Below, one piece after another: positions 6,773 to 53,072 of a stretch of DNA of 64,000 nt (its first letter is position 1; each line of letters begins with the position of its first letter). The DNA comes from Escherichia coli. GTDB lineage: Bacteria; Pseudomonadota; Gammaproteobacteria; Enterobacterales; Enterobacteriaceae. The stretch lies in the NCBI RefSeq assembly GCF_046105845.1, contig NZ_CP151004.1; one strand, given 5' to 3'. The notes beneath the pieces are model-generated. The model was not told the DNA's origin and searched no databases. It saw nothing but the letters and a program-made list of their open reading frames with translations. Both the position numbers and the translations under genes were made by a program.

Positions 6773-8768
<1,996 letters not shown>

Positions 8769-8827
8769 GGCGTTGCCTCATAATCATGTAATGGGATAAC
8801 AGTTTACGAACCCGTTATGGCTTTATA

Positions 8828-8843
8828 TGTGATCTGAATCTCA
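8828..8843 (-). promoter_or_regulatory. CRP site in the cdd promoter (CRP/CytR region)
   Basis: TGAGATTCAGATCACA on the coding strand about 60 nt upstream of the cdd ATG; a weaker CRP-like site lies near 8855-8872. Confidence 0.45.
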
Positions 8844-8897
8844 TTAATTATGCAACGCGTGAAACTTACATCAAAAATGCGCGACGCATCGCAAATT

Positions 8898-10024
<1,127 letters not shown>

Positions 10025-10226
10025 TTAATTCGTAAAACGTGCTACCGATCACATTAAGAAATCAGCGCTTATTTTTTCGCTCCCGGGCATTACGCAATGA
10101 GCAGCGAACTCAGGCATACATCAAGCATAGAGAGGGATTGCAGTTTGCAGCAATCCCTCTTTGCAGACCTTTAATCCGCTGACCATAGGCGCTAACATAG
10201 CGCCTCATTTTTTTGCGGGTGATGAT

Positions 10227-11174: not shown

Positions 11175-11220
11175 GAAACCATAGTGATGTTTTTTGACAA
11201 TGTGTTAGCTCTTTATCAAT

Positions 11221-11452
11221 AGGCCGCACGGTTGTTTGGTGGCGTCAAAATCGCCGAGGCGTTCCCTGAAGGCCGGGGCAGCCCACATGGATGTGGGCTG
11301 AGGGCGCGTTTTACAGGGATGTTACCTCGCGCCCGACCCGGTAGCCGTAAGGGATAAGCCGAGGGCACCGCGCAGCGGCGATTTTGTTCGCCAGAGCCCG
11401 GGGGTGCAGGGGGCGGCGGCGATTGGCCGCCCCCTGCGCGCTCCTTGCGCCA
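11221..11452. repeat. GC-rich hairpin-dense intergenic element of unknown identity
   Basis: About 230 bp with perfect stems (CAGCCCACAT/ATGTGGGCTG at 11279-11300; GCAGGGGGCGGC/GCCGCCCCCTGC at 11406-11437) and a long-range inverted repeat (11243-11258 vs 11377-11393). Confidence 0.4.
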
Positions 11453-11546
11453 GTGATTATATGAAGCAATGCACATGACAGGAGCGCAACAGGATGAGAG
11501 ACTGAAATATTCTCGTTATTTTCGGATCTGATGACATTAATTAATT

Positions 11547-11630
11547 TTAAAATATCATCTTAAATACGCCAGTCACCACCAGTAGCCCAATCAGGAAAAT
11601 AATCAATACAGCCCAGAGTATAATTTTCAT
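11547..11630 (-). CDS. yohP: Small membrane protein YohP (27 aa)
   Basis: Hand translation gives MKIILWAVLIIFLIGLLVVTGVFKMIF*, a single-transmembrane small protein; not in the ORF track because of its size. Confidence 0.7.
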   Translation of the reverse strand: MKIILWAVLIIFLIGLLVVTGVFKMIF

Positions 11631-11853
11631 TGGCGTTCCTTTATTTGTGAGTGCTGAATAAGTATAGGAAAAAACGAAGCCCTTTGCCGCTATCCATAAA
11701 CTATTAAGATAAATCGGAAGATATCATTCACTTAGTGTATATTTTTCTGGATATGTCGTTTTATTGCCACTGATGTATTGCCACGCGAAACTAAAAAATA
11801 TATCGCAACACACGGTAATCTCCGCGCACCTTTTCTTACCTGATTATTCCCCC

Positions 11854-13290
11854 ATGAATCGTGATTCTTTTTATCCCGCCATCGCCTGTTTTCCGCTGTT
11901 ACTGATGCTGGCCGGGTGTGCGCCTATGCATGAAACCCGCCAGGCGTTAAGCCAGCACACGCCCGCTTCACAAGTTGACACCGCATTACCCACGGCGCTG
12001 AAAAATGGTTGGCCAGACAGCCAATGGTGGCTGGAGTATCACGATAATCAACTCACTTCCTTAATTAATAACGCACTACAGAACGCACCGGATATGCAGG
12101 TGGCTGAACAACGCATTCAACTGGCTGAAGCCCAGGCGAAGGCAGTTGCCACTCAGGATGGTCCGCAGCTCGACTTTTCTGCGGATATGGAGCGACAAAA
12201 AATGTCGGCAGAAGGCTTAATGGGGCCGTTTGCTCTGAACGATCCGGCCGCAGGTACGACCGGTCCGTGGTACACCAACGGTACTTTTGGCTTAACGGCG
12301 GGCTGGCATCTCGATATCTGGGGAAAGAATAGGGCGGAGGTAACTGCTCGCCTGGGAACGGTTAAAGCACGGGCGGCGGAACGCGAGCAAACCCGCCAAT
12401 TGCTGGCTGGCAGCGTAGCCCGCCTGTACTGGGAGTGGCAAACCCAGGCGGCGTTAAACACTGTCTTACAGCAAATCGAAAAAGAGCAGAACACCATTAT
12501 CGCCACCGATCGCCAGCTATATCAGAACGGGATTACTTCTTCAGTTGAAGGTGTGGAAACCGATATTAATGCCAGCAAAACCCGGCAGCAGCTCGACGAT
12601 GTCGCGGGGAAAATGAAAATTATTGAGGCACGGTTAAGCGCACTTACAAATCACCAGACAAAGGCATTGAAGCTTAATCCGGTCGCGTTGCCGAAAGTGG
12701 CAAGCCAGCTTCCTGATGAACTGGGGTACTCCTTACTGGCGCGGCGGGCAGATTTGCAGGCGGCGCACTGGTACGTTGAGTCATCGTTAAGCACTATTGA
12801 TGCGGCAAAAGCGGCATTTTATCCTGACATCAACCTGATGGCCTTCCTGCAACAGGATGCGTTGCACTTAAGCGATCTGTTCCGTCATTCCGCGCAGCAA
12901 ATGGGCGTTACGGCAGGCCTGACGCTACCCATTTTCGATAGTGGTCGTCTTAACGCCAACCTCGATATCGCAAAAGCCGAAAGCAACTTGTCTATCGCCA
13001 GCTACAACAAAGCGGTGGTTGAAGCGGTGAATGACGTGGCGCAGGCAGCCAGTCAGGTTCAGACACTGGCGGAGAAAAACCAGCATCAGGCGCAAATTGA
13101 GCGCGATGCCTTGCGTGTAGTAGGTCTTGCGCAGGCGCGCTTTAACGCGGGCATCATTGCGGGTTCCCGCGTCAGCGAAGCCAGAATCCCCGCGCTGCGT
13201 GAGCGGGCCAATGGCCTGTTATTGCAAGGGCAGTGGCTGGATGCCTCCATTCAACTCACTGGTGCGTTGGGCGGGGGTTACAAACGTTGA
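11854..13290 (+). CDS. mdtQ: Outer-membrane efflux lipoprotein MdtQ (OprM/NodT family), apparently intact
   Basis: Start chosen at MNRDSFYPAIACFPLLLMLAGC (lipobox) to give 478 aa; continuous frame. Confidence 0.88.
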   Translation: MNRDSFYPAIACFPLLLMLAGCAPMHETRQALSQHTPASQVDTALPTALKNGWPDSQWWLEYHDNQLTSLINNALQNAPDMQVAEQRIQLAEAQAKAVATQDGPQLDFSADMERQKMSAEGLMGPFALNDPAAGTTGPWYTNGTFGLTAGWHLDIWGKNRAEVTARLGTVKARAAEREQTRQLLAGSVARLYWEWQTQAALNTVLQQIEKEQNTIIATDRQLYQNGITSSVEGVETDINASKTRQQLDDVAGKMKIIEARLSALTNHQTKALKLNPVALPKVASQLPDELGYSLLARRADLQAAHWYVESSLSTIDAAKAAFYPDINLMAFLQQDALHLSDLFRHSAQQMGVTAGLTLPIFDSGRLNANLDIAKAESNLSIASYNKAVVEAVNDVAQAASQVQTLAEKNQHQAQIERDALRVVGLAQARFNAGIIAGSRVSEARIPALRERANGLLLQGQWLDASIQLTGALGGGYKR

Positions 13291-13342
13291 TGATATGCGC
13301 CTTCTATACTTAACGTTTATTCAGCGTTAAGTGGAGAACTCG

Positions 13343-14104
13343 ATGGCACAGGTCGCGATTATTACCGCCTCCGATTCGGGGATCGGCAAAGAGTGCGCGT
13401 TATTACTGGCGCAGCAGGGGTTTGATATTGGTATTACCTGGCACTCTGATGAAGAAGGGGCAAAAGATACCGCGCGTGAGGTGGTTAGCCACGGCGTACG
13501 TGCGGAGATCGTGCAGCTGGATCTCGGCAATCTACCAGAAGGGGCACTGGCGCTGGAGAAACTCATTCAACGGCTGGGGCGTATTGATGTGCTGGTGAAT
13601 AATGCGGGCGCAATGACCAAAGCGCCGTTTCTTGATATGGCTTTCGATGAGTGGCGCAAGATTTTTACCGTTGATGTCGATGGTGCATTTTTATGCTCGC
13701 AAATTGCTGCCCGCCAGATGGTGAAACAAGGGCAGGGTGGTCGCATCATCAACATTACGTCGGTGCATGAACATACGCCGTTGCCGGATGCCAGCGCCTA
13801 CACAGCCGCTAAACATGCGCTCGGCGGGTTAACCAAAGCGATGGCGCTGGAGCTGGTCAGGCATAAGATTTTGGTGAATGCGGTTGCACCTGGGGCGATC
13901 GCCACGCCAATGAACGGCATGGATGATGGCGACGTGAAGCCCGGCGCGGAGCCTTCGATTCCCTTGCGGCGTTTTGGCGCAACGCATGAGATTGCCAGCC
14001 TGGTGATGTGGCTTTGTTCGGAGGGCGCAAATTACACCACTGGGCAGTCGTTGATAGTGGATGGCGGCTTTATGTTGGCGAATCCGCAGTTCAACCCAGA
14101 ATAG
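13343..14104 (+). CDS. yohF: Short-chain dehydrogenase/reductase YohF
   Basis: Start at MAQVAIITASDSGIGK gives 253 aa; SDR glycine-rich motif and YxxxK. Confidence 0.9.
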   Translation: MAQVAIITASDSGIGKECALLLAQQGFDIGITWHSDEEGAKDTAREVVSHGVRAEIVQLDLGNLPEGALALEKLIQRLGRIDVLVNNAGAMTKAPFLDMAFDEWRKIFTVDVDGAFLCSQIAARQMVKQGQGGRIINITSVHEHTPLPDASAYTAAKHALGGLTKAMALELVRHKILVNAVAPGAIATPMNGMDDGDVKPGAEPSIPLRRFGATHEIASLVMWLCSEGANYTTGQSLIVDGGFMLANPQFNPE

Positions 14105-14144
14105 CGCAGTGAGGTGCGTGGTTATTTCATTGGGTAATATTTGG

Positions 14145-14226
14145 GTAGGCATGATAAGACGCACAAGCGTCGCATCAGGCATGGTGCACCGGATGTCGGA
14201 TGCGGCGCGAACGCCTTATCCTAGGC
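14145..14226. repeat. REP/BIME palindromic units between convergent yohF and yohD
   Basis: Two canonical REP units (GCCTGATGCGACGCTTGTGCGTCTTATCATGCCTACC on the minus strand; CGGATGCGGCGCGAACGCCTTATCC). Confidence 0.7.
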
Positions 14227-14233
14227 AATGGTT

Positions 14234-14812
14234 TTACGCCTGATTATCCGGCTTTTTCTTCCCGCGTCGTTTCAGCCACCAGCGCACGCCTACCACCAGA
14301 ACCACGACCAGAATCAACCAGACCCAGTGTTTCAAATGCTGGTCGAGATTGTGCAACCACGGCGCAATCACCTGACCACCAGCGTAACCGATAGTTGTAA
14401 AAATCAACGCCCAGGCAAATGCGCCAAGGATATTCAGTGGCAGAAAGATTTTCGGCGGCAGCTGGCTGGCACCAATCAGCGTCGGGCCAATCACCCTAAA
14501 GCCATACATAAAACGCGTACCAATGACAAACAGATACGGATGGCGTTGGATAAGTTTCTGCGCCCGCTCAATTTTATCCTGATGTTTCGAGAAACGGCGT
14601 AATAGCTTGCCGCCAAAGCGCCGCCCGCACAGATAAAGCACCTGGTCGCCAATCATGCCGCCAAGCGCCACAGAAAGTACCACCAGCGGGAACTTTAATA
14701 GCCCCTGATGTGCCGCAACGCCTCCCAGCAAAGTCACGGTTTCACCTTCCGCCAGGCTACCGATCACCAGCGCGGCATAACCATATTGTGAGATGAGTGT
14801 ATTGAGATCCAT
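14234..14812 (-). CDS. yohD: DedA-family inner-membrane protein YohD
   Basis: Start at MDLNTLISQYGY gives 192 aa; DedA/SNARE-associated family sequence. Confidence 0.88.
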   Translation of the reverse strand: MDLNTLISQYGYAALVIGSLAEGETVTLLGGVAAHQGLLKFPLVVLSVALGGMIGDQVLYLCGRRFGGKLLRRFSKHQDKIERAQKLIQRHPYLFVIGTRFMYGFRVIGPTLIGASQLPPKIFLPLNILGAFAWALIFTTIGYAGGQVIAPWLHNLDQHLKHWVWLILVVVLVVGVRWWLKRRGKKKPDNQA

Positions 14813-14981
14813 AGGCCAGTCTGTCTCCCTTTGGTTGCCTGTAAGCATACACCCTGTAAATCATTCACGCTGAAAAAGGACGTACATCAGACGGTGCAAA
14901 TTACATGAGCGAACAAAAAATAATCACAAGCTGACTTATACTTGAACTGTCAGGTTCATGAACTCACAACAAGGGGGCGGT

Positions 14982-15569
14982 ATGAGCCATGTCTGGGGAC
15001 TGTTTTCCCATCCCGATCGTGAAATGCAGGTGATTAATCGCGAAAACGAAACGATTTCTCATCACTACACCCACCACGTTTTGCTGATGGCGGCGATTCC
15101 GGTGATTTGCGCCTTCATTGGCACTACACAGATTGGCTGGAATTTTGGCGATGGCACTATCCTGAAGTTATCCTGGTTTACCGGACTGGCGCTGGCTGTC
15201 CTGTTTTATGGCGTTATGCTGGCTGGGGTTGCGGTGATGGGGCGGGTCATCTGGTGGATGGCGCGCAATTACCCACAGCGTCCGTCACTTGCGCACTGCA
15301 TGGTCTTCGCGGGCTACGTTGCAACTCCGCTGTTTTTAAGCGGTCTGGTGGCGCTTTATCCGCTGGTCTGGTTGTGTGCGCTGGTCGGCACGGTGGCGCT
15401 GTTTTACACCGGCTACCTGCTGTATCTCGGTATTCCGAGCTTCCTGAATATCAACAAAGAGGAAGGCCTTAGCTTCTCCAGTTCGACGCTGGCGATTGGC
15501 GTGCTGGTACTGGAAGTGCTGCTCGCCCTTACCGTTATACTATGGGGTTACGGTTATCGTTTGTTCTAG
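14982..15569 (+). CDS. yohC: Yip1-family inner-membrane protein YohC
   Basis: Start at MSHVWGLF gives 195 aa; polytopic membrane protein. Confidence 0.85.
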   Translation: MSHVWGLFSHPDREMQVINRENETISHHYTHHVLLMAAIPVICAFIGTTQIGWNFGDGTILKLSWFTGLALAVLFYGVMLAGVAVMGRVIWWMARNYPQRPSLAHCMVFAGYVATPLFLSGLVALYPLVWLCALVGTVALFYTGYLLYLGIPSFLNINKEEGLSFSSSTLAIGVLVLEVLLALTVILWGYGYRLF

Positions 15570-15742
15570 AAAGTTCTTTTGTGTTGCATTGCTGGCGTAA
15601 ATGTCAGCAATGCAGCATTTCCTCACGATTCTCCTTTGACGATCGCACTTTTTGCTCGTTATGATGGCGTCGCTAGCCTCAGTAAATCCTTACTCCGGCG
15701 GTGCGCAACCCGTGCGCGTGAACCACTATCTGAATGCTCATC

Positions 15743-16675
15743 ATGCCGAAATTTCGAGTTTCTTTATTTAGCCTGGCCCTGATGCTGGCTGTGCCTTTTG
15801 CACCGCAGGCCGTTGCGAAAACGGCAACCGCTACCACCGCTTCACAACCGGAAATTGCCTCCGGTAGCGCGATGATTGTTGATCTGAATACCAACAAAGT
15901 GATCTATTCGAACCACCCGGATCTGGTGCGTCCGATTGCGTCTATCAGCAAATTAATGACCGCGATGGTTGTGCTGGATGCGCGACTGCCGCTGGATGAA
16001 AAACTAAAAGTGGATATCAGCCAGACGCCGGAGATGAAAGGGGTCTATTCGCGCGTACGACTGAATAGCGAAATCAGCCGTAAAGATATGCTGTTGTTGG
16101 CGCTGATGTCTTCAGAAAACCGCGCGGCGGCAAGCCTTGCGCACCATTATCCCGGTGGTTACAAAGCCTTTATTAAGGCGATGAATGCGAAAGCGAAATC
16201 GCTCGGAATGAACAACACGCGCTTTGTTGAACCGACCGGATTGTCGGTGCATAACGTTTCAACCGCCCGTGACTTAACCAAACTGCTCATTGCCAGCAAA
16301 CAATATCCGTTGATCGGGCAGTTAAGTACTACCCGGGAAGATATGGCAACCTTCTCTAACCCGACGTATACGCTGCCGTTCCGCAATACTAACCATCTGG
16401 TGTATCGCGATAACTGGAATATTCAGTTAACCAAAACCGGCTTTACCAATGCGGCGGGCCATTGTCTGGTGATGCGTACGGTTATCAATAATAAACCGGT
16501 GGCGCTGGTAGTGATGGACGCGTTTGGCAAATATACCCATTTTGCCGATGCCAGCCGCCTGCGTACCTGGATTGAAACCGGTAAAGTGATGCCTGTTCCG
16601 GCAGCAGCGTTGAGCTATAAAAAACAAAAAGCCGCCCAGATGGCGGCGGCGGGGCAGACGGCACAGAACGATTAA
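15743..16675 (+). CDS. pbpG: D-alanyl-D-alanine endopeptidase (PBP7)
   Basis: Start at [11 protein letters not shown] gives 310 aa; signal peptide and SISK (SxxK) active-site motif. Confidence 0.93.
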
Positions 16676-16682
16676 ATGAATG

Positions 16683-16716
16683 ACGGATGGCGATACTCTG
16701 CCATCCGTAATTTTTA
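16683..16716 (+). terminator. Intrinsic terminator between convergent pbpG and dld
   Basis: ACGGATGGC-gatactct-GCCATCCGT stem followed by AATTTTTAC. Confidence 0.5.
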
Positions 16717-18429
16717 CTCCACTTCCTGCCAGTTTTTCCGCTTACTGGTTTTACCGATCCCCGGATTCATGCTGTTGGTCGGATCGTTCTCGCGATAAAA
16801 CTTCTGCAACGTCTCCGGTGCTTTATACAAATGACCGACGTTATGCTCGGCAGGGTACTGCGCGCCGCGCTGCTGTAGCAGTTCCAGCATCTGTTCTTTC
16901 AACGCATGCACATCCACGCCTTTTTTAACGATGTAATCCTGATGGAAGACATAGCACATAAAATGGCCGTAATAGAGCTTGTGCACCAGCTGGCTGTCGA
17001 TCTCCGGCGGTAAATGCTCATACCACTCGGTGTCGTTACGCCGCAGAGCGATATCCAGTGCCAGAATGTCTTCGACTTCATCGGAATGCACCGCCTGATA
17101 ACGAATTGCTGCGCCCGCAGCGGCGAAACGGTGTAAAAACGCTTTGCTACCTTCCTCCGGCGTACAGACAAAGAAATCGCCTTCGGCCTGTTTGAAATAA
17201 TCCACCAGCCACGATTTGGCTTCACCGACGCCATCGCCCGCCATTTTTAACAGCAGATGATGTTCGTATTTATCGCGCCAGTTTTTCATGCGCGGCGGTA
17301 AATGGCTGGGGAACAGGTGACCGAATTTTTGCATCGCACGGTCGGTAAAATGCGGACGGAAGAATTTCACTTTCTCCAGCATCGCATCGGTGCGCCCCTT
17401 GAGATTAAAGAAGAACGGCATCTTGTCGGTGCCTAACTTATCAATCATCAGGAAGGTGTCTTTGCCGTATTTTTCCGCAATATCGTAGATATCCCGGTGC
17501 ATATATTCCCCGGCAACCGGCAGATTTTCGAAATTAGCCAGAATATGACGGCGGATTTCGGTCAGTACTTCCGGCTGGTTGGTGCCGATATAAAACACCT
17601 GCTGATTTTTTTCCGCTTCGAAGGTATCAAGACGTACCGCAAAGACGGCCAGCTTCCCGGCGCAACCAGAAGATTCAAATAACCGATCCGGATCGGCGTT
17701 ATAACGTGCAGGCGTGTCGGCTTCAATATCACGAACGCGGTGGACATAGTCATAATCGTGGGCGTGACGACCATCGTGACGCACATCGTCATCTTTGATG
17801 CGATCGTCATCCAGCTTGCTAAGGATCTGCTCCGGCGTTTCGCCCAGATCAATCCCGAGATGGTTAACCAGCGTCAGCTTGCCATCTTCATTTATACGCG
17901 CGAATAACGACATTTCGGTATACGCCGGGCCACGTTGCACCAACGAGCCGCCGGAGTTGTTACAAATACCGCCGATGACCGATGCGCCTATACACGATGA
18001 TCCAATCACTGAGTGCGGTTCGCGTCCCAGCGGTTTGAGGGCTTTTTCCAGCGAATAAAGCGTGGTGCCCGGATAGGCCAGCACCTGTTCGCCCTTGCCA
18101 AGAACGTGCAGCTTGTCGAGACGCAGGGTGCTGATGATCACGATATCGCGATCATAGTCGTTACCGTTTGGCGTCGAGCCTTCGGTCAGACCTGTATTGG
18201 CAGCCTGCATCAGAATAATTTTGTCGGCGGTGACGCAGGCTTTCAGCACCCGCCACAATTCCAGTAGTGAGCTAGGGAAAACGACAGCCAGCGCGTCGCC
18301 CTGACCAGAACGGAAGCCCTTGCGATAGCGGGCCGTTTTTGCGGGATCGGTGAGCAGGTGTGAATGACCGACCAGACGGGCAAGTTCATTCAAAAAGGCT
18401 TTATTATCAATTGTTGTCATGGAAGACAT
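16714..18429 (-). CDS. dld: FAD-dependent D-lactate dehydrogenase
   Basis: Start at MSSMTTIDNKAFLNELARLVG gives 571 aa. Confidence 0.95.
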   Translation of the reverse strand: MSSMTTIDNKAFLNELARLVGHSHLLTDPAKTARYRKGFRSGQGDALAVVFPSSLLELWRVLKACVTADKIILMQAANTGLTEGSTPNGNDYDRDIVIISTLRLDKLHVLGKGEQVLAYPGTTLYSLEKALKPLGREPHSVIGSSCIGASVIGGICNNSGGSLVQRGPAYTEMSLFARINEDGKLTLVNHLGIDLGETPEQILSKLDDDRIKDDDVRHDGRHAHDYDYVHRVRDIEADTPARYNADPDRLFESSGCAGKLAVFAVRLDTFEAEKNQQVFYIGTNQPEVLTEIRRHILANFENLPVAGEYMHRDIYDIAEKYGKDTFLMIDKLGTDKMPFFFNLKGRTDAMLEKVKFFRPHFTDRAMQKFGHLFPSHLPPRMKNWRDKYEHHLLLKMAGDGVGEAKSWLVDYFKQAEGDFFVCTPEEGSKAFLHRFAAAGAAIRYQAVHSDEVEDILALDIALRRNDTEWYEHLPPEIDSQLVHKLYYGHFMCYVFHQDYIVKKGVDVHALKEQMLELLQQRGAQYPAEHNVGHLYKAPETLQKFYRENDPTNSMNPGIGKTSKRKNWQEVE

Positions 18430-18624
18430 TTTCCACTCCTTGTGGTGGCGAAAAAATATCACAACCTAGAATAGCGCCTTGTATGACAATTCAGCGAGTG
18501 AATATTTTGAAAATTCAGACAATAAACTGAGCATTCTTTTTCTCTCTCCATCATGCTTATGGCAAACTACGGTTTTTGCACCATTTTCGCTGCCACGTCG
18601 GGCAACAAAGGAAGAAAAATCCAT

Positions 18625-20922
18625 ATGAAATGGCTATGTTCAGTAGGAATCGCGGTGAGTCTGGCCCTGCAGCCAGCACTGGCGGATGATTTATTCGGTA
18701 ACCATCCATTAACGCCTGAAGCGCGGGATGCGTTCGTCACCGAACTGCTTAAGAAAATGACAGTTGATGAGAAAATTGGTCAGCTGCGCTTAATCAGCGT
18801 CGGCCCCGATAACCCGAAAGAGGCGATCCGCGAGATGATCAAAGACGGTCAGGTTGGGGCGATTTTCAACACCGTAACCCGTCAGGATATCCGCGCCATG
18901 CAGGATCAGGTGATGGAATTAAGCCGCCTGAAAATTCCTCTTTTCTTTGCTTACGACGTGCTGCACGGTCAGCGCACGGTGTTCCCGATTAGCCTCGGTC
19001 TGGCCTCGTCTTTTAACCTCGATGCGGTGAAAACGGTCGGACGTGTCTCTGCTTATGAAGCGGCAGATGATGGCCTGAATATGACCTGGGCACCAATGGT
19101 CGATGTTTCGCGCGATCCGCGCTGGGGACGTGCTTCCGAAGGTTTTGGCGAAGATACGTATCTCACCTCAATAATGGGTAAAACCATGGTGGAAGCGATG
19201 CAGGGTAAAAGTCCGGCAGATCGCTACTCGGTGATGACCAGCGTCAAACACTTTGCCGCTTACGGCGCGGTAGAAGGCGGTAAAGAGTACAACACCGTCG
19301 ATATGAGTCCGCAGCGCCTGTTTAATGATTATATGCCGCCGTACAAAGCGGGGCTGGACGCAGGCAGCGGCGCAGTGATGGTGGCGCTGAACTCGCTGAA
19401 CGGTACGCCAGCCACCTCCGACTCCTGGCTGCTGAAAGATGTTCTGCGCGACCAGTGGGGCTTTAAAGGCATCACCGTTTCCGATCACGGCGCAATCAAA
19501 GAGCTGATTAAACACGGCACGGCGGCAGATCCGGAAGATGCGGTGCGCGTGGCGCTTAAGTCCGGGATCAACATGAGCATGAGCGACGAGTATTACTCGA
19601 AGTATCTGCCTGGGTTGATCAAATCCGGCAAAGTGACCATGGCAGAGCTGGACGATGCTGCCCGCCATGTACTGAACGTTAAATATGATATGGGGTTGTT
19701 TAACGACCCATACAGCCATCTCGGTCCGAAAGAGTCTGACCCGGTGGATACCAATGCCGAAAGCCGCCTGCACCGCAAAGAAGCGCGTGAAGTGGCACGC
19801 GAAAGCCTGGTGTTGCTGAAAAACCGTCTCGAAACGTTACCGCTGAAAAAATCAGCCACCATTGCGGTGGTTGGGCCACTGGCGGACAGCAAACGTGACG
19901 TGATGGGCAGCTGGTCCGCAGCCGGTGTTGCCGATCAATCCGTGACCGTACTGACCGGGATTAAAAATGCCGTCGGTGAAAACGGTAAAGTGCTGTACGC
20001 CAAAGGGGCGAACGTCACCAGTGACAAAGGCATTATCGATTTCCTGAATCAGTATGAAGAGGCGGTCAAAGTCGATCCGCGTTCGCCGCAAGAGATGATT
20101 GATGAAGCGGTGCAAACCGCGAAACAATCTGATGTGGTGGTGGCTGTGGTCGGTGAAGCTCAGGGGATGGCGCACGAGGCCTCCAGCCGTACCGATATTA
20201 CTATTCCGCAAAGCCAACGTGACTTGATTGCGGCGTTGAAAGCCACTGGTAAACCGCTGGTGCTGGTGCTGATGAATGGGCGTCCGCTGGCGCTGGTGAA
20301 AGAAGATCAGCAGGCTGATGCGATTCTGGAAACCTGGTTTGCGGGTACGGAAGGGGGTAATGCGATTGCCGATGTATTGTTTGGCGATTACAACCCGTCC
20401 GGTAAGCTACCGATGTCCTTCCCGCGTTCTGTCGGGCAGATCCCGGTGTACTACAGCCATCTGAATACCGGGCGTCCGTATAATGCCGACAAGCCGAACA
20501 AATATACATCGCGTTATTTTGATGAAGCTAACGGGGCGCTGTATCCGTTCGGCTATGGTCTGAGCTATACCACCTTCACCGTCTCTGATGTGAAACTTTC
20601 CGCGCCGACCATGAAGCGTGACGGCAAAGTGACCGCCAGTGTGCAGGTGACGAACACCGGTAAGCGCGAAGGGGCGGCGGTAGTGCAGATGTACTTGCAG
20701 GATGTGACGGCTTCCATGAGTCGTCCGGTGAAGCAGCTGAAAGGCTTTGAGAAAATCACCCTGAAATCGGGCGAAACTCAGACCATCAGCTTCCCGATTG
20801 ATATCGAGGCGCTGAAGTTCTGGAATCAACAGATGAAATATGACGCCGAGCCTGGCAAGTTCAACGTCTTTATCGGCACTGATTCCGCACGCGTTAAGAA
20901 AGGCGAGTTTGAGTTGCTGTAA
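18625..20922 (+). CDS. bglX: Periplasmic beta-glucosidase (GH3)
   Basis: Start at MKWLCSVGIAVSLA (signal peptide) gives 765 aa; GH3 family sequence. Confidence 0.95.
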   Translation: MKWLCSVGIAVSLALQPALADDLFGNHPLTPEARDAFVTELLKKMTVDEKIGQLRLISVGPDNPKEAIREMIKDGQVGAIFNTVTRQDIRAMQDQVMELSRLKIPLFFAYDVLHGQRTVFPISLGLASSFNLDAVKTVGRVSAYEAADDGLNMTWAPMVDVSRDPRWGRASEGFGEDTYLTSIMGKTMVEAMQGKSPADRYSVMTSVKHFAAYGAVEGGKEYNTVDMSPQRLFNDYMPPYKAGLDAGSGAVMVALNSLNGTPATSDSWLLKDVLRDQWGFKGITVSDHGAIKELIKHGTAADPEDAVRVALKSGINMSMSDEYYSKYLPGLIKSGKVTMAELDDAARHVLNVKYDMGLFNDPYSHLGPKESDPVDTNAESRLHRKEAREVARESLVLLKNRLETLPLKKSATIAVVGPLADSKRDVMGSWSAAGVADQSVTVLTGIKNAVGENGKVLYAKGANVTSDKGIIDFLNQYEEAVKVDPRSPQEMIDEAVQTAKQSDVVVAVVGEAQGMAHEASSRTDITIPQSQRDLIAALKATGKPLVLVLMNGRPLALVKEDQQADAILETWFAGTEGGNAIADVLFGDYNPSGKLPMSFPRSVGQIPVYYSHLNTGRPYNADKPNKYTSRYFDEANGALYPFGYGLSYTTFTVSDVKLSAPTMKRDGKVTASVQVTNTGKREGAAVVQMYLQDVTASMSRPVKQLKGFEKITLKSGETQTISFPIDIEALKFWNQQMKYDAEPGKFNVFIGTDSARVKKGEFELL

Positions 20923-28969: not shown

Positions 28970-29431
28970 TTATTTCACTTCTTTAAAACCAGCGGCTTTC
29001 ATCACCAGTTCCATTTGCGCCATAGTGATACCTTTTTTGGCATCTTCAGCAGAAACGTTGATTCCTGAAATACCCTGCAGGGCTTTAAAATCCACTTTTT
29101 CCATATCGATAGTCACGTTTTCCTGCGCGTAGGTATCGGTATAGGTTAATTTTTCTTCAACACCCGCGATGTTTTTGTATTTGGCGCTTAACGGCTCAAG
29201 TGTCTTGGCAGCATCTTCTTTGGTGGTTGCACCAATGGAGGCAAATTGAATTTTGGTTTCAGAAGATTGCTTAAGCACCTTGTCACCTTTGTAGACATAG
29301 GTAATGGCAATTTCAGTGCCGTTCAGATTGGCGCTGAATTTTTTCGATTCTTCTTTGTCACCGCAGCCAGCAAGAGAGAAAACCAGAACAGATGCAACAA
29401 CGAGGGAAAACAGCTTATTGAAAGCCTTCAT
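28970..29431 (-). CDS. yehR: Lipoprotein YehR (DUF1307)
   Basis: Start at MKAFNKLFSLVVASVLVFSLAGC (lipobox) gives 153 aa. Confidence 0.88.
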   Translation of the reverse strand: MKAFNKLFSLVVASVLVFSLAGCGDKEESKKFSANLNGTEIAITYVYKGDKVLKQSSETKIQFASIGATTKEDAAKTLEPLSAKYKNIAGVEEKLTYTDTYAQENVTIDMEKVDFKALQGISGINVSAEDAKKGITMAQMELVMKAAGFKEVK

Positions 29432-29555
29432 GTAAAACTCCATTTTATTTAATCAAGGAACTGGTGACTCTCACCAGGGGCTATATAGGATATGCCTAAT
29501 ACCGTGGCGTGAGCAGTCCGGAACTGGAGTAGAACTCTTAGTAAAAAGCACTATT

Positions 29556-29852
29556 TCATCCTTGTTGCTGAAGCATGGGGAATAATTGTTCGCAAAGCAA
29601 AACACCGTTATTCATTGCTTCTACCCGTGCCTCGCTTTCTGTATTACGAAATTGTGCCAACACATGTGCCAGCCGATAAAAACCCACCGCGGTGAGGTCA
29701 TTCGCCAGCAACTCTGCCTGACCAATAGCACTCTGTTCCTGATAGCGCCAGCCGTTATGGAGCAGTTGAATAAGTAACGCCTGGCAGCGCATCAGCAACT
29801 GATGAGCGGTAGACGGCACAGGCAGAACGCTGGCAGAAGGTAGCGGTGCCAC
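29556..29852 (-). other. Open frame co-phased with yehQ downstream of its in-frame TGA (possible detached C-terminal segment)
   Basis: 98-codon ORF in the same frame as yehQ, separated from the TGA at 29877-29879 by 8 sense codons; begins with GTG; translated sequence is not low-complexity. Confidence 0.35.
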
Positions 29853-29876
29853 AGGCGCAGTTTCTGCGTCCAGCGC

Positions 29877-31556
29877 TCAGGCGCGGGTTTTGGTCATCAT
29901 TACCCGTGGTTCCAGTGTCAATTGCCCCTCAACAAAACTGACAAAGCCAGAAACCAGACTCACGGGGTCGTCTGTGTGTTGCAAAAGTGCCGCCATGCGT
30001 TCAACGGCAAAAGGAGAACAGGCAGATGCCGGAAGGGATAACGTCAGCACATTATCTTCCCCTTCGCCGCTAATGACCTGCGCGTCCAGTGTCTGGCGGC
30101 TGCTATCCCAACCAAGCGAAATACACTCCGCTACCGGCAGAATAAATAAGTTATCGACCTGGTTGAGTGGTCGTATGCAGGCGGGGGGACGCTGGCGTAA
30201 ATATTCCCGCAAAGCCACAATGCCCGACTGGCGCAACGGCGCGCTCAACATTTGCCAGGCGTCTGGCGACAGCGGCACAACGCTGCTTAAGCGGTTGCGG
30301 GTAGCTAACAACAGCTCGCCATCGGCACTGCGTTTTGCTGCTTGTGAAACAATTTGCCCACCTGCCAGTGCGCCAGCCAGAAAACTAAACAGCCGACGCG
30401 TCGCTGCCGGTGAGTTTTCCTGTTCGCTTCTCGGCCAACTACGCGAAAGATGCAAAATACTGCCAGTGTCGGGATCGGTAAACCAGATGCGTAAACCATA
30501 ATGCTCAATATCCTGCCAGCAACGCATACCTAAAGACACCAGCCGCAGATGATCAAGCTTTGCTTCTCCGGCAATGCCAGAGCCAACGACCGTGCGCCAC
30601 GGCACAGGAGGAACTTCACCAACACTGTCGCGCCGGGCCATCTCTTGTGCGCAATTTAATCGACTGTTTAATGCCGCAAGCTGACGTAAGCATTCTCCGA
30701 CATGATAGTGGCTGGCGCGGGCGTGGAAGGCATCAACGCTGGCGCGCAGTTGCCGTAGCGATTCACTCACCCAGCGCCAGTTGCAGCGTTCCGCCGCTTG
30801 CTGCGCGCGGCTGAAAGCAGCCTTGTAATGAATAAGCGGCTGGCTGATGCCGCCAAGCCATAACGCCTGGCTTAATTGCTGAACATATTGACGACACGCG
30901 TCGCCCTCATCGTTGGCAAACGGATCGTCAGATGATGTGACGTGTTCGCTGCGCATCTGCCAGATTAAATGAGTAAATTCCGCTTGCTGCGCTTTGGCCT
31001 GGACAAAGGCCTGTACTGCCAGTACGACATGTTCGCAAAGTGTGCCGTCAATACAATCACAGCGTGCGAAACGAATGCTGCTGCGGGAATAAAAACGTAC
31101 ATCGCTCATCGGTAAGCGGGCAGAGGGAATTTCGCCCGGCGTACAGAACAACTCAATGGTGATGCCTTTAGCGACCAGTGTCTGTGCGCGTTTGCGGGTG
31201 GCATCGGGCAGGGTAGCCAGTTCTTCCAGCCAGATTGCCGGATCCCACTCTTCTTCTTTTTCCGTAGGCTGGGTGGTGGCGCAAAGTCGCTGATAACTTA
31301 AAACCAGCATCACGCGATGGCGGCACATGCCGCTGGCCCCGCAGCTGCATTGAGCCTCTTTCAGTGCCTGACCGTTCGCCAGCTGGGTGCGGACACCGTC
31401 ACTGAAGGTGGCGATTAAAGCGCCGTTCTCATGGCTGATTTCCGGGACGTTGCCATTTTCCAGTTCTTTAAGGCTGCGCTTAACAAAACCGGCATTGCTT
31501 AACGCCGTCAAAGCTTGTGGTGTCAGTTCTAATAATTCCGGCCGTAGTGAATTCAT
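29877..31556 (-). CDS. yehQ: SWIM zinc-finger protein YehQ (ends at an in-frame TGA)
   Basis: 559-aa ORF with SWIM motif CSCGASGMCRHRVM (CxCxnCxH); ATGA overlap with yehP stop. Confidence 0.85.
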   Translation of the reverse strand: MNSLRPELLELTPQALTALSNAGFVKRSLKELENGNVPEISHENGALIATFSDGVRTQLANGQALKEAQCSCGASGMCRHRVMLVLSYQRLCATTQPTEKEEEWDPAIWLEELATLPDATRKRAQTLVAKGITIELFCTPGEIPSARLPMSDVRFYSRSSIRFARCDCIDGTLCEHVVLAVQAFVQAKAQQAEFTHLIWQMRSEHVTSSDDPFANDEGDACRQYVQQLSQALWLGGISQPLIHYKAAFSRAQQAAERCNWRWVSESLRQLRASVDAFHARASHYHVGECLRQLAALNSRLNCAQEMARRDSVGEVPPVPWRTVVGSGIAGEAKLDHLRLVSLGMRCWQDIEHYGLRIWFTDPDTGSILHLSRSWPRSEQENSPAATRRLFSFLAGALAGGQIVSQAAKRSADGELLLATRNRLSSVVPLSPDAWQMLSAPLRQSGIVALREYLRQRPPACIRPLNQVDNLFILPVAECISLGWDSSRQTLDAQVISGEGEDNVLTLSLPASACSPFAVERMAALLQHTDDPVSLVSGFVSFVEGQLTLEPRVMMTKTRA

Positions 31557-32689
31557 GACTGAAGATTCTCCGCAAGCCAGGTCGCCAGTTCGCCCGGCGT
31601 CATGGCGGCTATTTGTGCGCCGACATTAACCAGCGCCTGGGCCGTATCGTGGTCATAGCAAGGTGTTGCGGTGCTATCGAGCGCCGCCAGTCCCAGTACT
31701 TTGATGCCGCTCTGGACACACTTTTTCACCTGATGCGTCAGTAATGATGATGAACCCCCTTCGTAAAAATCGCTCACGAGGATAATGACGCTTTTCGCTG
31801 GTTGTTCAATAAGTTGCCGACCATATTCCATGGCACTGGCGATATTGGTTCCGCCGCCTAATTGCACTTTCATTAATAACTCTACCGGATCGGCAACGTC
31901 TGCCGTGAGATCAACCACGCTGGTGTCAAACGCCACCAGATGGGTACGAATACCGGGTAACTGCCATAAACAGGTCGCCATCACCGCTGAGTGGATCACC
32001 GAGTCCACCATTGATCCGCTTTGATCAACCAGTAAGACCAGTTGCCATTGTTCACTGTGGCGCTTAATGCGGCTGTTAAAGCGGGGGGATTCGATATACA
32101 ACTTGCCGTGTTGCGGATGCCAGTGTTGCAGGTTGGCGCGCAGCGTACTTTTGAACTCAAAGTTTCGCGCCAGTGGAATAAATGAGCGGCGACGGCGATC
32201 GCGGACACCAGAAAAAGCCTGACGAACTTCCTTTGCCAGTCGCGCCATAATCTCTTCAACAACCTGGTGCACTATCCGGCGGGCGGCAGCCAGCACTTCG
32301 GGATTCATCAGATGTTTGGTGTGCAAAACGGCGCGTAGCAGGCTTTCAGAAGGCTGCATACGTTCCAGCACGTCGAGATTCGTCACCACATCTTCAATGC
32401 CGTAGCGCAGTACGGCATCGCTTTCCAGCCGCTCGATCACCCGTTGCGGAAACAGCGTGTGAATACTGTTGATCCACTCAGGGGTGGTGAGATTTGAGCC
32501 ACCTAATCCACCGGAGCGTTCACCACGCTGGAGCCGTTCAGGATCGCGCCCGTACAGCCACTCCAGCGCGTGGTCTATCTGCCGGGCATTGTCATCCAGC
32601 CCACAAAGGGTCGTTTCTGCCGCTTCGCCAAGAATTAATCGCCAGCGTTGTAGCTCACGGATAGTCAGAAGATCGTTCAGTTCAGACAT
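31553..32689 (-). CDS. yehP: von Willebrand factor A domain protein YehP
   Basis: Start at MSELNDLLTIRE gives 378 aa; MIDAS motif DQSGSM. Confidence 0.9.
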   Translation of the reverse strand: MSELNDLLTIRELQRWRLILGEAAETTLCGLDDNARQIDHALEWLYGRDPERLQRGERSGGLGGSNLTTPEWINSIHTLFPQRVIERLESDAVLRYGIEDVVTNLDVLERMQPSESLLRAVLHTKHLMNPEVLAAARRIVHQVVEEIMARLAKEVRQAFSGVRDRRRRSFIPLARNFEFKSTLRANLQHWHPQHGKLYIESPRFNSRIKRHSEQWQLVLLVDQSGSMVDSVIHSAVMATCLWQLPGIRTHLVAFDTSVVDLTADVADPVELLMKVQLGGGTNIASAMEYGRQLIEQPAKSVIILVSDFYEGGSSSLLTHQVKKCVQSGIKVLGLAALDSTATPCYDHDTAQALVNVGAQIAAMTPGELATWLAENLQS

Positions 32690-36060: not shown

Positions 36061-36171
36061 ATATTCATCCCTGAAATGTATTAATGAAATAAACGATATT
36101 TTACGCGCAATAAATGTTTTGCGCATTAGTTGTTTGAACGGAAAATATCTGGAAAGCAGATCACAGTAAAT

Positions 36172-36254
36172 AAAAAAACCTGCTGGTGAGGCAGGTTCTT
36201 TTATTTACTATTTTCAGGCCCAACACCGCAGCCTGTGCAACATCGTGTTCCAAC
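36172..36254 (-). ncRNA. Candidate OrzO-like antitoxin sRNA, copy 1
   Basis: Minus-strand TATAAT at 36266-36261 with TTGCAA -35 at 36289-36284 (17-bp spacer); ends at hairpin CCTGCCTCACCAGCAGG followed by TTTTTTT (36195-36172). Confidence 0.45.
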
Positions 36255-36283
36255 GAACGAATTATAACCATCGGTGGACCCCG

Positions 36284-36311
36284 TTGCAATTAAGATAATG
36301 AGATTTATAAT
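36284..36311 (+). promoter_or_regulatory. Sigma70 promoter of toxin mRNA, copy 1
   Basis: TTGCAA-16 bp-TATAAT; predicted start near 36318 gives a 5' UTR of about 175 nt. Confidence 0.5.
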
Positions 36312-36492
36312 CCAGACGGTTGGGACGTTGCGCCGGATCGGACCAATTTCAAGTCCTGGCTACCGGACGGGTGGTGCTGCAGGTGGTGCCCTGATCCGGA
36401 GTGCAACATCGTGGTCCAACATACGTAAACCAGTATCGACAGGCAGTGTAAGGGTAAGGTGCTGGTGTTGCGCTCCTTAATAAGGAGAGCGG

Positions 36493-36582
36493 ATGGACAC
36501 GCAGACACAAAAGTTAACCGTGCTCATTGCTGTACTGGAGCTATTAGTGGCTCTGTTACGGTTGATTGATTTGTTGAAGTAA
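36493..36582 (+). CDS. zorO: Type I toxin, ZorO/ZorP family (29 aa), copy 1
   Basis: AGGAGAG Shine-Dalgarno then MDTQTQKLTVLIAVLELLVALLRLIDLLK*; which copy is zorO versus zorP cannot be told from sequence alone. Confidence 0.75.
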   Translation: MDTQTQKLTVLIAVLELLVALLRLIDLLK

Positions 36583-36604
36583 TGGGCAAATTGAAACGCA
36601 TCTA

Positions 36605-36634
36605 AGGGGGAATACCGCTTCCCCCTTTAATAAA
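36605..36634 (+). terminator. Terminator of toxin mRNA, copy 1
   Basis: AGGGGGAA-taccgc-TTCCCCCT stem followed by TTAATAAAAT. Confidence 0.4.
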
Positions 36635-36777
36635 ATGATTACATCTTCCATTAATTCACCTGATAACTTTTTTCTTATTTATAAATTCATCGATTTTATA
36701 ATTAACGTACCATTTCGCCGGGATGTGAATATTTATGGTGGCTATTGGCGAAAAATATCTGGAAAGTAGATCGCAGA

Positions 36778-36862
36778 AAATAAAAGAACCTGCTGGTGAG
36801 GCAGGTTCTTTTATTTACTACTTTGATGTTAAGTTACTGATAGTGCAACATGGCATCTCAAC
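36778..36862 (-). ncRNA. Candidate OrzP-like antitoxin sRNA, copy 2
   Basis: Minus-strand TATAAT at 36874-36869 and TTGCAA at 36897-36892 (17-bp spacer); hairpin at 36789-36805 followed by a U-rich tract. Confidence 0.4.
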
Positions 36863-36891
36863 GAACGAATTATAACCACCGCTGGACCGTG

Positions 36892-36919
36892 TTGCAATTA
36901 AGATAATGAGATTTATAAT
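36892..36919 (+). promoter_or_regulatory. Sigma70 promoter of toxin mRNA, copy 2
   Basis: TTGCAA-16 bp-TATAAT. Confidence 0.5.
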
Positions 36920-37100
36920 CCTGACTGTTGGGAAGTTGCGCCGGATCGAACCCATTTCAAGTCCTGGCTACCGGACGGGTGGTGCCGCAGGTAGTGCTCT
37001 GATCCGGAGTGCAACATGGCGACTCAACATACGTAAATCAGTATCGACAGGCAGTGTAAGGGTAAGGTGCTGGTGTTGCGCTCCTTAATAAGGAGAGCGG

Positions 37101-37190
37101 ATGGACACGCTGACACAAAAGTTAACCGTGCTCATTGCCGTACTGGAGCTATTAGTGGCTCTGTTACGGTTGATTGATTTGTTGAAGTAA
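37101..37190 (+). CDS. zorP: Type I toxin, ZorO/ZorP family (29 aa), copy 2
   Basis: MDTLTQKLTVLIAVLELLVALLRLIDLLK*; differs from copy 1 only at codon 4 (CTG Leu versus CAG Gln). Confidence 0.75.
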   Translation: MDTLTQKLTVLIAVLELLVALLRLIDLLK

Positions 37191-37209
37191 TGGGCAAATT
37201 GAAACGCAA

Positions 37210-37563
37210 CTAAGGGGGAAAACCGCTTCCCCCTTTAATAAAGTAATATTCTATTAGTTGGTTGAATATATTCTGTAGTTTACGATTAAAAATTGCTATT
37301 ACAGTTTCAGGTGATTCACCTCGTAATTTCCGCTCATCAATACACTCATCTCTTATATAAATCAACGCATCATTTATTAGCGGGTCAGCATCTTCTCGAT
37401 CACGTTGATGAAATGTTGGACGTAGCCGGAATCGCTCCAGTCGATAGACAGAACCTGTAAATAATTCAGAGCGTTTATGGATCTCAAGCCTGAAGGAAAA
37501 CGGCTCTTCAGGTACAGGGGCCTCATAATCGTAAATAGTGATCAGCTCTTTTTGCACGATCAT
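37210..37563 (-). CDS. yehK: Uncharacterised protein YehK
   Basis: 117-aa ORF starting MIVQKELITIYDYEAP; its last 10 codons lie inside the copy-2 terminator hairpin (37213-37242). Confidence 0.7.
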   Translation of the reverse strand: MIVQKELITIYDYEAPVPEEPFSFRLEIHKRSELFTGSVYRLERFRLRPTFHQRDREDADPLINDALIYIRDECIDERKLRGESPETVIAIFNRKLQNIFNQLIEYYFIKGGSGFPP

Positions 37564-41265: not shown

Positions 41266-44200
41266 TTATTCAAACAGGGCTTCAATATCGTTAATGAGTT
41301 CGCTGGCGGTGATGTCGTCGAGCACGGAGAACTGCGCTTCCTGTGTTGAATTACTCCCCCAGCCATAGCTTTCCGCTTTGCCTTCCCATAGCCACAGCTT
41401 ACTCAAGAGTTGCTCGGCACTGAGTTCGGCTGGCGACATGCCGACCGCAAAACCTTCATCGATTTTCATGATTAACGACCAGCGGCCCAGCGGTTTGATC
41501 ATCCAGCCGATCCAGCCACCGTCCTGCGGTTCACCACGCATCCAGCCTTTATTCGCCAGCCCCATTACCCGACCGCTCGGGCATTTTCTGCCTGCCCAGC
41601 GGGTCAATTCGCTGGCATTGCGCTCGGTTTCTGTCAGGGCGTAACTGTTACGGTCGAGCTGGCGGAACGGCGGTAGCAGTTCGTAGTCGGCAAAAAGTTG
41701 ACCAAAGGCGGCAGCATCCGTGGGTGATATTTCCAGAACGTGAGGAATCCAACAGAGATATCGCCTTCCGGCAGGGTGAAAAGATCATCGTCTGCGGTGC
41801 TGTAGCTGTTATCTTCCGCCACGCGAAAGCAAGCCAGTAGCTCGTTTTCGGTGCTATAAACGCCCCAAATCAGACGGCGGGTTAAGTGACGAACCAGCGG
41901 ATGCTCAACCAGGAAGAGCTGAAAGTTTTCCGGCGACCAGCGGCGGCGCAGGCACATGGCGGATTCCAGCCTTGCTACCTGCTGGGCGGCGACGGTACGC
42001 GCATCTTTTTTCAGCAATTTGTAGCGGTTAACAGCATCGTTTGCCTGTGATTCATCATCGCTTTTATTGGGTTTAGGTAAGTCTTTCAGGCGGCTGCCGG
42101 AAACATCGCGCACAAACGGTTTTAAGGTTTCATCAAAGCTGACGGTGAACTGGCGTGGGCCAAAATCCAGCAGCAGCGAACCGTTATCATCCAGACCGAG
42201 ATCCGGTGCTAACCGATCTTCAAGCTCCGCTACCGTCAGTTCGCGACTCTCGGCAATGTCGGCAATTTTTTCTTTTGCCCGCTCCTGTAATGCTTTGAAT
42301 TTCAGTTTCTGGGCGATCCCGTTAAGCTGCATCAGGGCGATATCACTACCGATAGCAGCGAGAATATCCAGCCCGACGGTGGCGCGTTTATGCTGGGATT
42401 CACCAGGCCAGGCGCGAATCAAAGGCGTCAGTTTGCGGGCGGTGTCGTCGTTACCGAGAACGCCTAACGCAGTGAACGCCCAGCTCTCTTTCGATGGTGC
42501 GCCAGCGGCCAGCCAGGCGGTAAACAGATCCCAGGTAAATTCAGCCAGTGAGTCGGCGGTACAGGCGGCTTTCACCTGCAATAATCCCGGATACAGTGCC
42601 TCTTCCTGAGGGAAGCGGAGCATTTCACCGAGGCGTAGGAGGGCGCTATCTGGCAGTGATTGGGCATTTGCTTTTAATACCGGGCGGGTCCAGATCGATG
42701 GCTGATAAAAGGCCGGAAGAGTGGGGATTTTTGTCGGGTGATTATCTAAGGGATCGAGCGCAAGCATAGCGTTCACCGCATCTATTACTTCCGGCTGGTT
42801 ATAACGCCGGGCGATTTCTTGCAGTAATGGCTGATGATCGTTTTCGATAAGCATACGCAAGGCAGCGCGGGCGTTATCCTGGGCTTCACCGGCTTTGCCG
42901 AGCGCCGCAGGCAGTAGGCCGGTAATGGCGTGTTCCGGGTATTTCAGCAGCCAGGTGCGGGCGTCTTGTCGTAGGGTTTTGAGTTTGTTGAAGGCGCGGG
43001 CGATCAGTGGCGCTAATTCGATAGCCGCAAAATATTGTGCTACAGGCAGAGCTTCTTGTGGATAGCGTGAAAAGGAGTGAATAAAACCCTGTAACCCAGT
43101 GAGTTGCAGGTGCGTCATGACAAACTCGACACCGACGTGTGGCTCTTTACTGAGGACATTCCACGCCTGCGCTGTCTTTTCGATAGGCAGGGCGGCTAAC
43201 ATGTAAAGCTGCCATTCCCGTTGATAGGAGTGCCAGAAGGTTTTAAATTCGCTGATCAGCGCGGAATAATGTCCCCTTTGCCAGAGATCTATAGCAGCAT
43301 CAGGCGCTTTCATATACTGGCCATTATTCCAGCGATTGAAACCCAGACGTGCCAGGTAGTTCTGAATATCCTCTTTTTGGCCGATGTCTATTTGATGTGC
43401 GTGCCAGCGATGCCTTGCATGAATCTCTTTTTCTGCCGTCTCGGTCAATGTGCAGCATGACTCCAACGATAATGGCGTTAAATCCAATACCGGTATAACA
43501 GATTTTTTCTTTTTCGAAAGCCAGGGCGGTGAGACTAATACGGCAGGCAGTAGATCGGCGCAGGCATGGTTTGAGGGCTGTGTCAGTTGTTGCAGGCATG
43601 CTTTCAGCACTGCAACTGCGGGTGTTGAGAGCCAGGGAGTGACCTGATCTGCCAGTGCCGGTTGCGAGATAAGCATCGTCATCAGCATAATGCGCCAACT
43701 ATTCTCTTCTTTTTGCGCAAGAAGTTCCGCCAGTGCCGCCAGTGCCGTGTGTGGGAACGCAGCGCAAGCCTTAGTCATTCGTTCATGGCAGCGTTTAGTT
43801 TTGCCAGACACACGTATAAGTAGCATTAATGCTTGTGGGTGATTGATCTCTGCGAGAATGCTTCCGCAAAGATCAGCATAAGCATAGGGGGCGAAGCGAG
43901 CGATTCCAGCAATCCCTTGCTCCTGCAAAACGGTGACATTCCAGATGCAACCATGGTAATAGTCATTAAAAAGGTCGTACGCGCAATAAGATTCCAGTGC
44001 TTTGAGTAAGGAAGATTCTTGAACAACAAGTTTCAGCCATTCAACAGTTTGGACATTTTTCTGCTTCAGTAACCGTCGTGCGACTTCTTCTGCAATCTCC
44101 GGGCGTTCCGGTAGCATTAGCGCTACCATCGGTTGTTGAACGGGAGGAATATCAGGTAAAGCTGTAATGAATTTATCTACACAGCGTTGCCACAAAGTTT

Positions 44201-45014
44201 CTTCTGCAAGAGCCAAATGCTTACGCAGTCGAACGTCAAAGGGGGTAACACAATGTGCATGGTTTAATAATGGCTGAAAAGTAATGTGTATGCTTGTTCT
44301 GTGATAAGCGCAATCGAACGAGATATATTGCATGGCAATAAACATATCCACGGCAAATTCTAGTCCGTAGACATAGACAATTTCATCCATGAGTTCAGGG
44401 CATTCGCCCCAGAATTTACGCGAAACCAGACCAACCTGTACAGCCAACGCAGCAGGAGAAAGTGGACCATTAGCGAGAGCTTCATTGATATTCTGCTGCC
44501 AGTTAGCAGAACATGCACTGAAATCGTATGTTGTTAATTTTCCTGATAGATTATGAATATCCTGACCTAAATTCATAAGGAGGCTGTCTTGTGGTTCGCT
44601 TACAGCATCCCCAGGAAAACGTCGGGAAGGTAAGGCCTCCTGAGACTTTTTCTCCGATAGATGGATAGTGGAATCATCTGTAAGCCACGGGCATGGTGTC
44701 TCAGCAGGTTCAGCAACCATACTTTGGTCAAATACGACAGTGGTTTCTGCCACGCCAGTTGTATCTACTTCGATCGTTTCTATTTTGATTGCGGTTTGGG
44801 ATGGCGAAGATAATTCTTCCACATACCCCTTCTTCACCTTCTCCGCAATCAGCTTCAGTCCCGCTTTTTCCGCCGCTGCTGCATCCGCAAAACTTTTTAC
44901 CTGGCTTTGTCCGTTGGTGCCGACTTTACCCCAGTTGATGTGCAGTTCGTTTCCCTGCTGCTCCACCGCCCAGAATTTATGTGATTTTTCGTCCTGATAG
45001 ATAAAGTGTTTCAT
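41266..45014 (-). pseudogene. molR: molR (yehH): WGR-domain/DUF4132 giant protein gene with a frameshift near the C-terminus
   Basis: ORFs 41634-45014 (1126 aa) and 41266-41607 are in different frames; the second frame continues the YehI-like C-terminal homology (ISPTDAAAFGQLFADYELLPPFRQL...); N-terminus has a WGR-like motif (KFWAVEQQGNELHINWGKVGTNG). Confidence 0.8.
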
Positions 45015-53062: not shown

Positions 53063-53072
53063 GAGGTGGAAT

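Follow-up and report, generated by a model that had tools for sequence, protein, structure and literature searches.

The closest described counterpart of the locus analysed here is yehQ of Escherichia coli K-12 (b2122), in which a GAG-to-TAG (amber) change at codon 615 leaves a conceptual product of 614 aa; RefSeq/PGAP labels the MG1655 span 'SWIM zinc finger family protein, internal stop' and treats it as a pseudogene. Among complete E. coli genomes 347 have this TAG allele, and the 40 of them that were listed, taken evenly down the ranking, are all K-12 laboratory strains or derivatives, judged from strain names; the GAG version is found in 2132 genomes. An intact counterpart is the yehQ of E. 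coli SCU-102 (WP_001366299.1), a 666-aa CDS likewise named 'SWIM zinc finger family protein'. A more distant likeness is to the fdhF-type selenoprotein genes, where as here an in-frame UGA is followed by an open frame, and which have a SECIS element, with G/U loop features in the E. coli fdhF type. Finally, UGA is the leakiest stop codon in E. coli, and near-cognate decoding of UGA by tRNA-Trp occurs in this species.

We analysed a stretch of 64 000 nt from an E. coli genome (contig NZ_CP151004.1, assembly GCF_046105845.1), called the window below, in which yehQ lies on the minus strand with its ATG at 31556-31554. The features of the gene and its immediate neighbours are as follows.

29556..31556, minus strand: complete yehQ frame, 666 codons plus the native stop, broken at codon 560
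29880..31556, minus strand: 5′ portion of yehQ, codons 1-559, with a predicted truncated product of 559 aa
29877..29879, minus strand: premature opal stop TGA at codon 560, from TGG (Trp) by G-to-A at window position 29877
29556..29876, minus strand: remnant downstream of the TGA, predicted to be untranslated, codons 561-666 plus the native TGA at 29558-29556
31553..32689, minus strand: yehP, VWA domain protein of 378 aa, intact; 4-nt overlap between its stop and the yehQ start
28970..29431, minus strand: yehR, lipoprotein of 153 aa, intact; 125 nt after the native yehQ stop

The in-frame TGA to which the initial annotation had drawn attention is real, and the coordinates given there were exact. 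Of the 107 open codons that it counted downstream, 106 are sense codons; its division of that stretch was right, the TGA (29879-29877) being followed by eight sense codons (ALDAETAP) and then, with no change of frame, by a GTG-initiated 98-codon ORF (29852-29556). The conceptual length is therefore 559 + 1 + 106 = 666 codons. The sequence around the stop (CGC GCC TGA GCG) has no homopolymer, and the base 3′ of the TGA is G. An open run of 106 codons arose by chance in 186 of 20 000 shuffles of the same bases (~1%), and the open frame past the TGA is, taken alone, only mildly unusual. It is the homology of the downstream frame, not its openness, that decides the case: the translation past the TGA is almost identical to the C-terminus of intact YehQ proteins.

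Both the K-12 and the window gene occupy the same span of 2001 bp, and in both the 666-codon frame is open except for one single-base nonsense change towards the C-terminus, but the K-12 stop is an amber at codon 615 and the window stop an opal at codon 560. In the structural model described below the K-12 stop falls within the second C-terminal helix; the window gene loses 55 residues beyond that, and none of the C-terminal helical domain is left. Since the two truncations differ in both site and distribution, they have independent origins, and the window allele, W560* (opal), is a new one in a gene that is already a nonsense pseudogene in K-12. The K-12 length of 614 aa given in the initial annotation is correct and is due to that strain's own stop at codon 615. 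It had been taken as a sign that the C-terminal region varies between strains; instead, the native length is 666-667 aa, and nonsense alleles have arisen separately in two lineages.

The ancestral state was read from 14 other E. coli alleles, those of K-12, SCU-102 and 12 genomes sampled at regular intervals of the similarity ranking; the 2.2-kb yehQ region found a match in 5366 of the 5426 complete E. coli genomes. Codon 560 is TGG in all 14 and TGA in the window alone, so that it is a sense codon wherever we looked, and intact YehQ has 666-667 aa in each of the 13 sampled genomes other than K-12. The best match is SCU-102, with the same 2001-bp span and 98.5% DNA identity, the same operon order (yehL-yehM-yehP-yehQ, then yehR) and a protein that differs from that of the window by five substitutions and the stop. 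Unlike the window, SCU-102 has TGG at codon 560 between identical flanking codons, and a single-nucleotide change, TGG to TGA, explains the stop. Beyond E. coli, far from ending at this TGA with an unconserved frame after it, orthologues run to 664-677 aa in Escherichia fergusonii, E. marmotae, E. ruysiae and E. albertii, in Klebsiella and Erwinia, and in Pseudomonas graminis, with a conserved C-terminus. Trp560 is invariant, within an A-W-x-L motif, in 12 orthologues from five genera down to 48% identity, and the wider family has a hydrophobic residue there (V, I, W or L). A profile search gave 1247 family representatives, mostly of 620-700 aa, whose alignments span profile positions ~4 to 640 or more. 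These comparisons bear out the proposal that a nonsense mutation has shortened a longer ancestral YehQ.

The differences between the window and SCU-102 alleles are unevenly placed, 25 of the 29 differing codons lying in codons 440-514 (30015-30239), 22 of these 25 being synonymous. This clustering suggests a recombination tract between the two alleles; an 'ACSP' motif of the tract also occurs in other E. coli and Shigella alleles.

The TGA allele is rare. A 35-mer centred on it had no match among the 5426 complete E. coli genomes or among 100 044 GTDB species representatives; its TGG version is present in 2609 of the 5426. By these searches the allele appears confined to one rare E. coli lineage. 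Measured against the 14 alleles, only two codons in the whole of yehQ are private to the window, namely the TGA itself and CTT at codon 481, a synonymous change, and the remnant past the TGA has no private substitution at all. With just one other private change, and that synonymous, the lesion is recent, and the downstream remnant has yet to start decaying.

We conclude with high confidence that the window holds a recent, lineage-private nonsense mutation of yehQ, Trp560 TGG to TGA, an ordinary gene-breaking event and not recoding. A G-to-A transition at 29877, in the sense of the minus strand, made the Trp codon an opal TGA; translation would then stop after residue 559, and the C-terminal four-helix domain (residues 583-663) would not be made. 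The 106 downstream codons do not form a gene of their own but are what is left, still undecayed, of an ancestral gene of 666 codons. Most likely, as judged from sequence and model together, YehQ function is lost or severely weakened and the gene is an incipient pseudogene, which agrees with the NCBI annotation of the independently truncated K-12 allele. The allele may nevertheless be slightly leaky, because the UGA replaces a UGG and a tRNA-Trp that misread it would put the original residue back, giving exactly the wild-type protein. We infer that full-length YehQ arises in this way in trace amounts only. In contrast to cases of enhanced read-through, the yehQ TGA is not a conserved stop, has no stimulatory structure and has G as its 3′ neighbour, and nothing points to selection for leaky read-through of UGA560.

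What the truncation would remove was assessed from Pfam matches, family alignments and a structure predicted with AlphaFold2 for the repaired protein (mean pLDDT 93.6, pTM 0.91), which place three features on the gene.

31293..31391, minus strand: first SWIM zinc-finger motif, residues 56-88 (Pfam PF04434, E 0.00097)
31008..31079, minus strand: second, weaker SWIM-like motif, residues 160-183 (Pfam PF04434, E 0.12)
29568..29810, minus strand: helical domain at the C-terminus, residues 583-663 (from the AlphaFold2 model)

The CxCxnCxH SWIM motif, upstream of the stop, is retained in the window. An alignment of 100 family sequences shows no variation at C70, C72, C78 and H80 of the first motif; in the second, C166, C168, C174 and H176 are invariant among the 12 orthologues. 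In the model two N-terminal modules that contain the SWIM motifs are followed by a helical region (216-311), then a beta-rich one (330-561), and lastly C-terminal helices at 583-601, 607-624, 627-634 and 641-663. The stop at 560 falls in the last beta-strand (559-561), just before the C-terminal helical domain; the truncation is thus predicted to take away the last part of this strand together with the linker and the entire helical domain, and predicted residues 1-559 keep both SWIM motifs and most of the fold. The full-length architecture of the family, ~640-700 aa with a C-terminal helical region, is not reached by the window product, which ends at residue 559. The missing region is present in all 100 sampled family members, each of which fills at least 85 of its 107 alignment positions, and its most conserved residues are G602 (99%), G625 (93%), L621 (86%) and L595 (84%). 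Among E. coli alleles dN/dS is 0.25 for the C-terminal part versus 0.11 for residues 1-559, a comparison that draws on few sites; as far as those few sites go, the C-terminal part appears to be under purifying selection. On the model and this conservation, truncated YehQ would probably be inactive or unstable.

The gene belongs to a yehLMPQ module encoding a MoxR-type ATPase and DUF5682, VWA and SWIM proteins, which adjoins zorO/zorP toxin loci. The operon is H-NS-silenced: yehL and yehM are de-repressed in hns/stpA mutants (PMC3686432). The same two genes are deleted in Shigella sonnei lineages 2 and 3 (PMC12795559). YehQ, YehP and YehM had no match in NCBIfam or PADLOC and nothing significant in a PDB sequence search, and our literature search on yehQ, on yehL/yehM/yehP and on DUF4132/DUF5682 returned incidental mentions only. 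In the window the partners yehI, yehK, yehL, yehM and yehP are intact; the yehQ lesion is therefore isolated and not part of general genome decay, and the module overall shows no visible sign of decay.

Many other disrupted forms of YehQ exist in public protein databases, namely in-frame deletions (591-637 aa), frameshift products (416 and 501 aa) and N-terminally truncated forms of 517 aa. The lesions are scattered along the gene, which fits sporadic decay of a dispensable, usually silent gene. They could also be read, together with W560* and E615*, as recurrent inactivation by selection to disable or tune a costly yehLMPQ system, possibly a nucleic-acid-sensing conflict system, with the UGA allele a leaky hypomorph; we consider this reading unlikely.

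One in-frame deletion, of 43 aa (…HYHAGE/AKLDH…), is recurrent, giving proteins of 623-624 aa in S. sonnei and in several E. coli backgrounds. In intact alleles it is flanked by a 10-bp direct repeat, TGCCGGAGAA, whose copies are 129 bp apart. A 35-mer across the deletion junction was unmatched in complete E. coli genomes, a result to be read knowing that flanking SNPs vary by background and that Shigella lies outside that collection.

Alternatively, the 559-aa protein, perhaps with a C-terminal peptide made separately, might be active, the loss of the domain having been selected as it might have been in K-12. That nonsense alleles have arisen independently twice in the C-terminal part (W560* here, E615* in K-12) would accord with this, as would the retention of the SWIM motifs and the beta-rich core in residues 1-559, and automated gene calling on a Logan contig did give an 87-aa ORF downstream. 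However, the K-12 allele is confined to K-12 derivatives and the window allele to one rare lineage; the spread of the other lesions along the gene looks like random decay, not targeted removal of a domain; and the C-terminal domain, which all sampled family members have, evolves under purifying selection in alleles that retain it. As for a separate peptide, the candidate GTG restarts are codons 569 and 580, preceded by TGGACGCAGAAACTGCGCCT and CTTCTGCCAGCGTTCTGCCT, neither of which holds a GGAG, GAGG or AGGA core; translational restart was rejected for want of a Shine-Dalgarno-like sequence before either. A functional truncation or split gene is in our judgement a decidedly improbable account of the locus.

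The stop could in principle be a sequencing or assembly error, the true codon being TGG and yehQ intact, a doubt that had been raised at the outset and that gains some colour from the change being a single base and from the absence of the allele from all 5426 complete E. coli genomes. Against it, five contigs in the NCBI and Logan collections, a 4.74-Mb chromosome among them, have the exact 559-aa product, and the stop lies outside any homopolymer. Run ERR13115083, as assembled in Logan, shows no difference from the window within yehQ and 99.987% identity to it over 7680 bp; the TGA is thus reproduced in an independent sequencing run and is not a read error, which leaves a highly improbable explanation and disposes of the sequencing difference proposed earlier.

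Programmed recoding, in which UGA560 would be read efficiently, as selenocysteine or by read-through, and the 666-aa product would be real, has in its favour the 106 codons open past the stop, the known capacity of tRNA-Trp to read UGA, here giving back the ancestral residue, and a small hairpin 10 nt downstream of the stop. Yet the ancestral residue at 560, and that of the orthologues, is Trp and not Cys or Sec, and no SECIS-like element is found, in which the locus departs from the fdhF-type genes. The hairpin-forming sequence is the same in the intact SCU-102 allele save for the mutated base, and its AAA loop has, by eye, none of the G/U features of the fdhF-type SECIS. An Rfam scan of 29300-31700 at E up to 1 gave zero matches, SECIS included, and the fold of the 71 nt spanning the stop (29885-29815) is not significant (z = -1.9, with 10 of 200 shuffles folding equally well); selenocysteine insertion and structured recoding were rejected on these two results. 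The stop and its context are moreover unconserved (0 of 5426 E. coli genomes and 0 of 100 044 species representatives), and a stop private to one lineage leaves no room for a recoding signal to have been selected. Read-through, which had been offered as one explanation of the open frame, is thus set aside as exceedingly improbable.

For annotation, yehQ here should be entered as one pseudogene or truncated allele over 29556-31556, not as a 559-aa gene plus a 98-aa hypothetical ORF, and beyond annotation the result matters little. The textbook 614-aa YehQ of K-12 is itself truncated, the native protein having 666-667 aa with a conserved C-terminal helical domain, and work on the MoxR/VWA/SWIM operon should therefore use an intact allele. 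Should a phenotype be found, the natural truncations at 559 and 614 might be used as ready-made domain-deletion variants.

The window as a whole is collinear with K-12 from fbaB to galS at ~97% identity, and no IS elements or rearrangements relative to K-12 were seen across it. All 52 other K-12 protein-coding genes that we tested are open in the window, 50 of them at exactly the K-12 length, which leaves yehQ as the sole interrupted gene of those compared. The identity of the window to any of the 5426 complete E. coli RefSeq genomes is at most 98.6% over 1-20000 and at most 97.5% over 32001-57000; with no close complete genome, it looks like a representative of a sparsely sampled E. coli lineage.

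Several genes differ from their K-12 versions in other ways. The yehK frame (37210-37563, minus strand) has 117 codons, versus 105 aa in K-12; its end differs and borders the zorO/zorP insertion. Frameshifted in K-12, where it is a pseudogene, mdtQ (11854-13290, plus strand) is open over 478 codons in the window. The DUF4132 gene upstream of yehI (41634-45014, minus strand) is an uninterrupted ORF of 1126 aa in the window and a 'frameshifted; internal stop' pseudogene in K-12, the reverse of the situation at yehQ. Parts of the same gene (43078-44818), and most of yehA (fimbrial adhesin, 53055-54024), either could not be aligned to K-12 by megablast, being too diverged, or did align but at only 86% identity; these stretches appear to be local hypervariable segments in otherwise 97% identical DNA.

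The yehK-yehL intergenic region (36130-37205) contains, in tandem, two zorO/orzO-family toxin-antitoxin loci of type I. K-12 lacks ~800 bp of this region and has one intergenic toxin-antitoxin copy left. The elements of these loci, and two cis-regulatory RNAs expected at their positions elsewhere in the window, are as follows.

36493-36582, plus strand: 29-aa toxin ORF, zorO/orzO family, MDTQTQKLTVLIAVLELLVALLRLIDLLK
37101-37190, plus strand: 29-aa toxin ORF, zorO/orzO family, MDTLTQKLTV...
36172-36247, minus strand: OrzO-P antitoxin RNA (Rfam, 101 bits)
36782-36855, minus strand: OrzO-P antitoxin RNA (Rfam, 90 bits)
15658-15738, plus strand: Peptidase-S11 RNA motif upstream of pbpG (72.8 bits), an expected cis-regulatory RNA
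56046-56142, plus strand: TPP riboswitch upstream of thiM (71.2 bits), an expected cis-regulatory RNA
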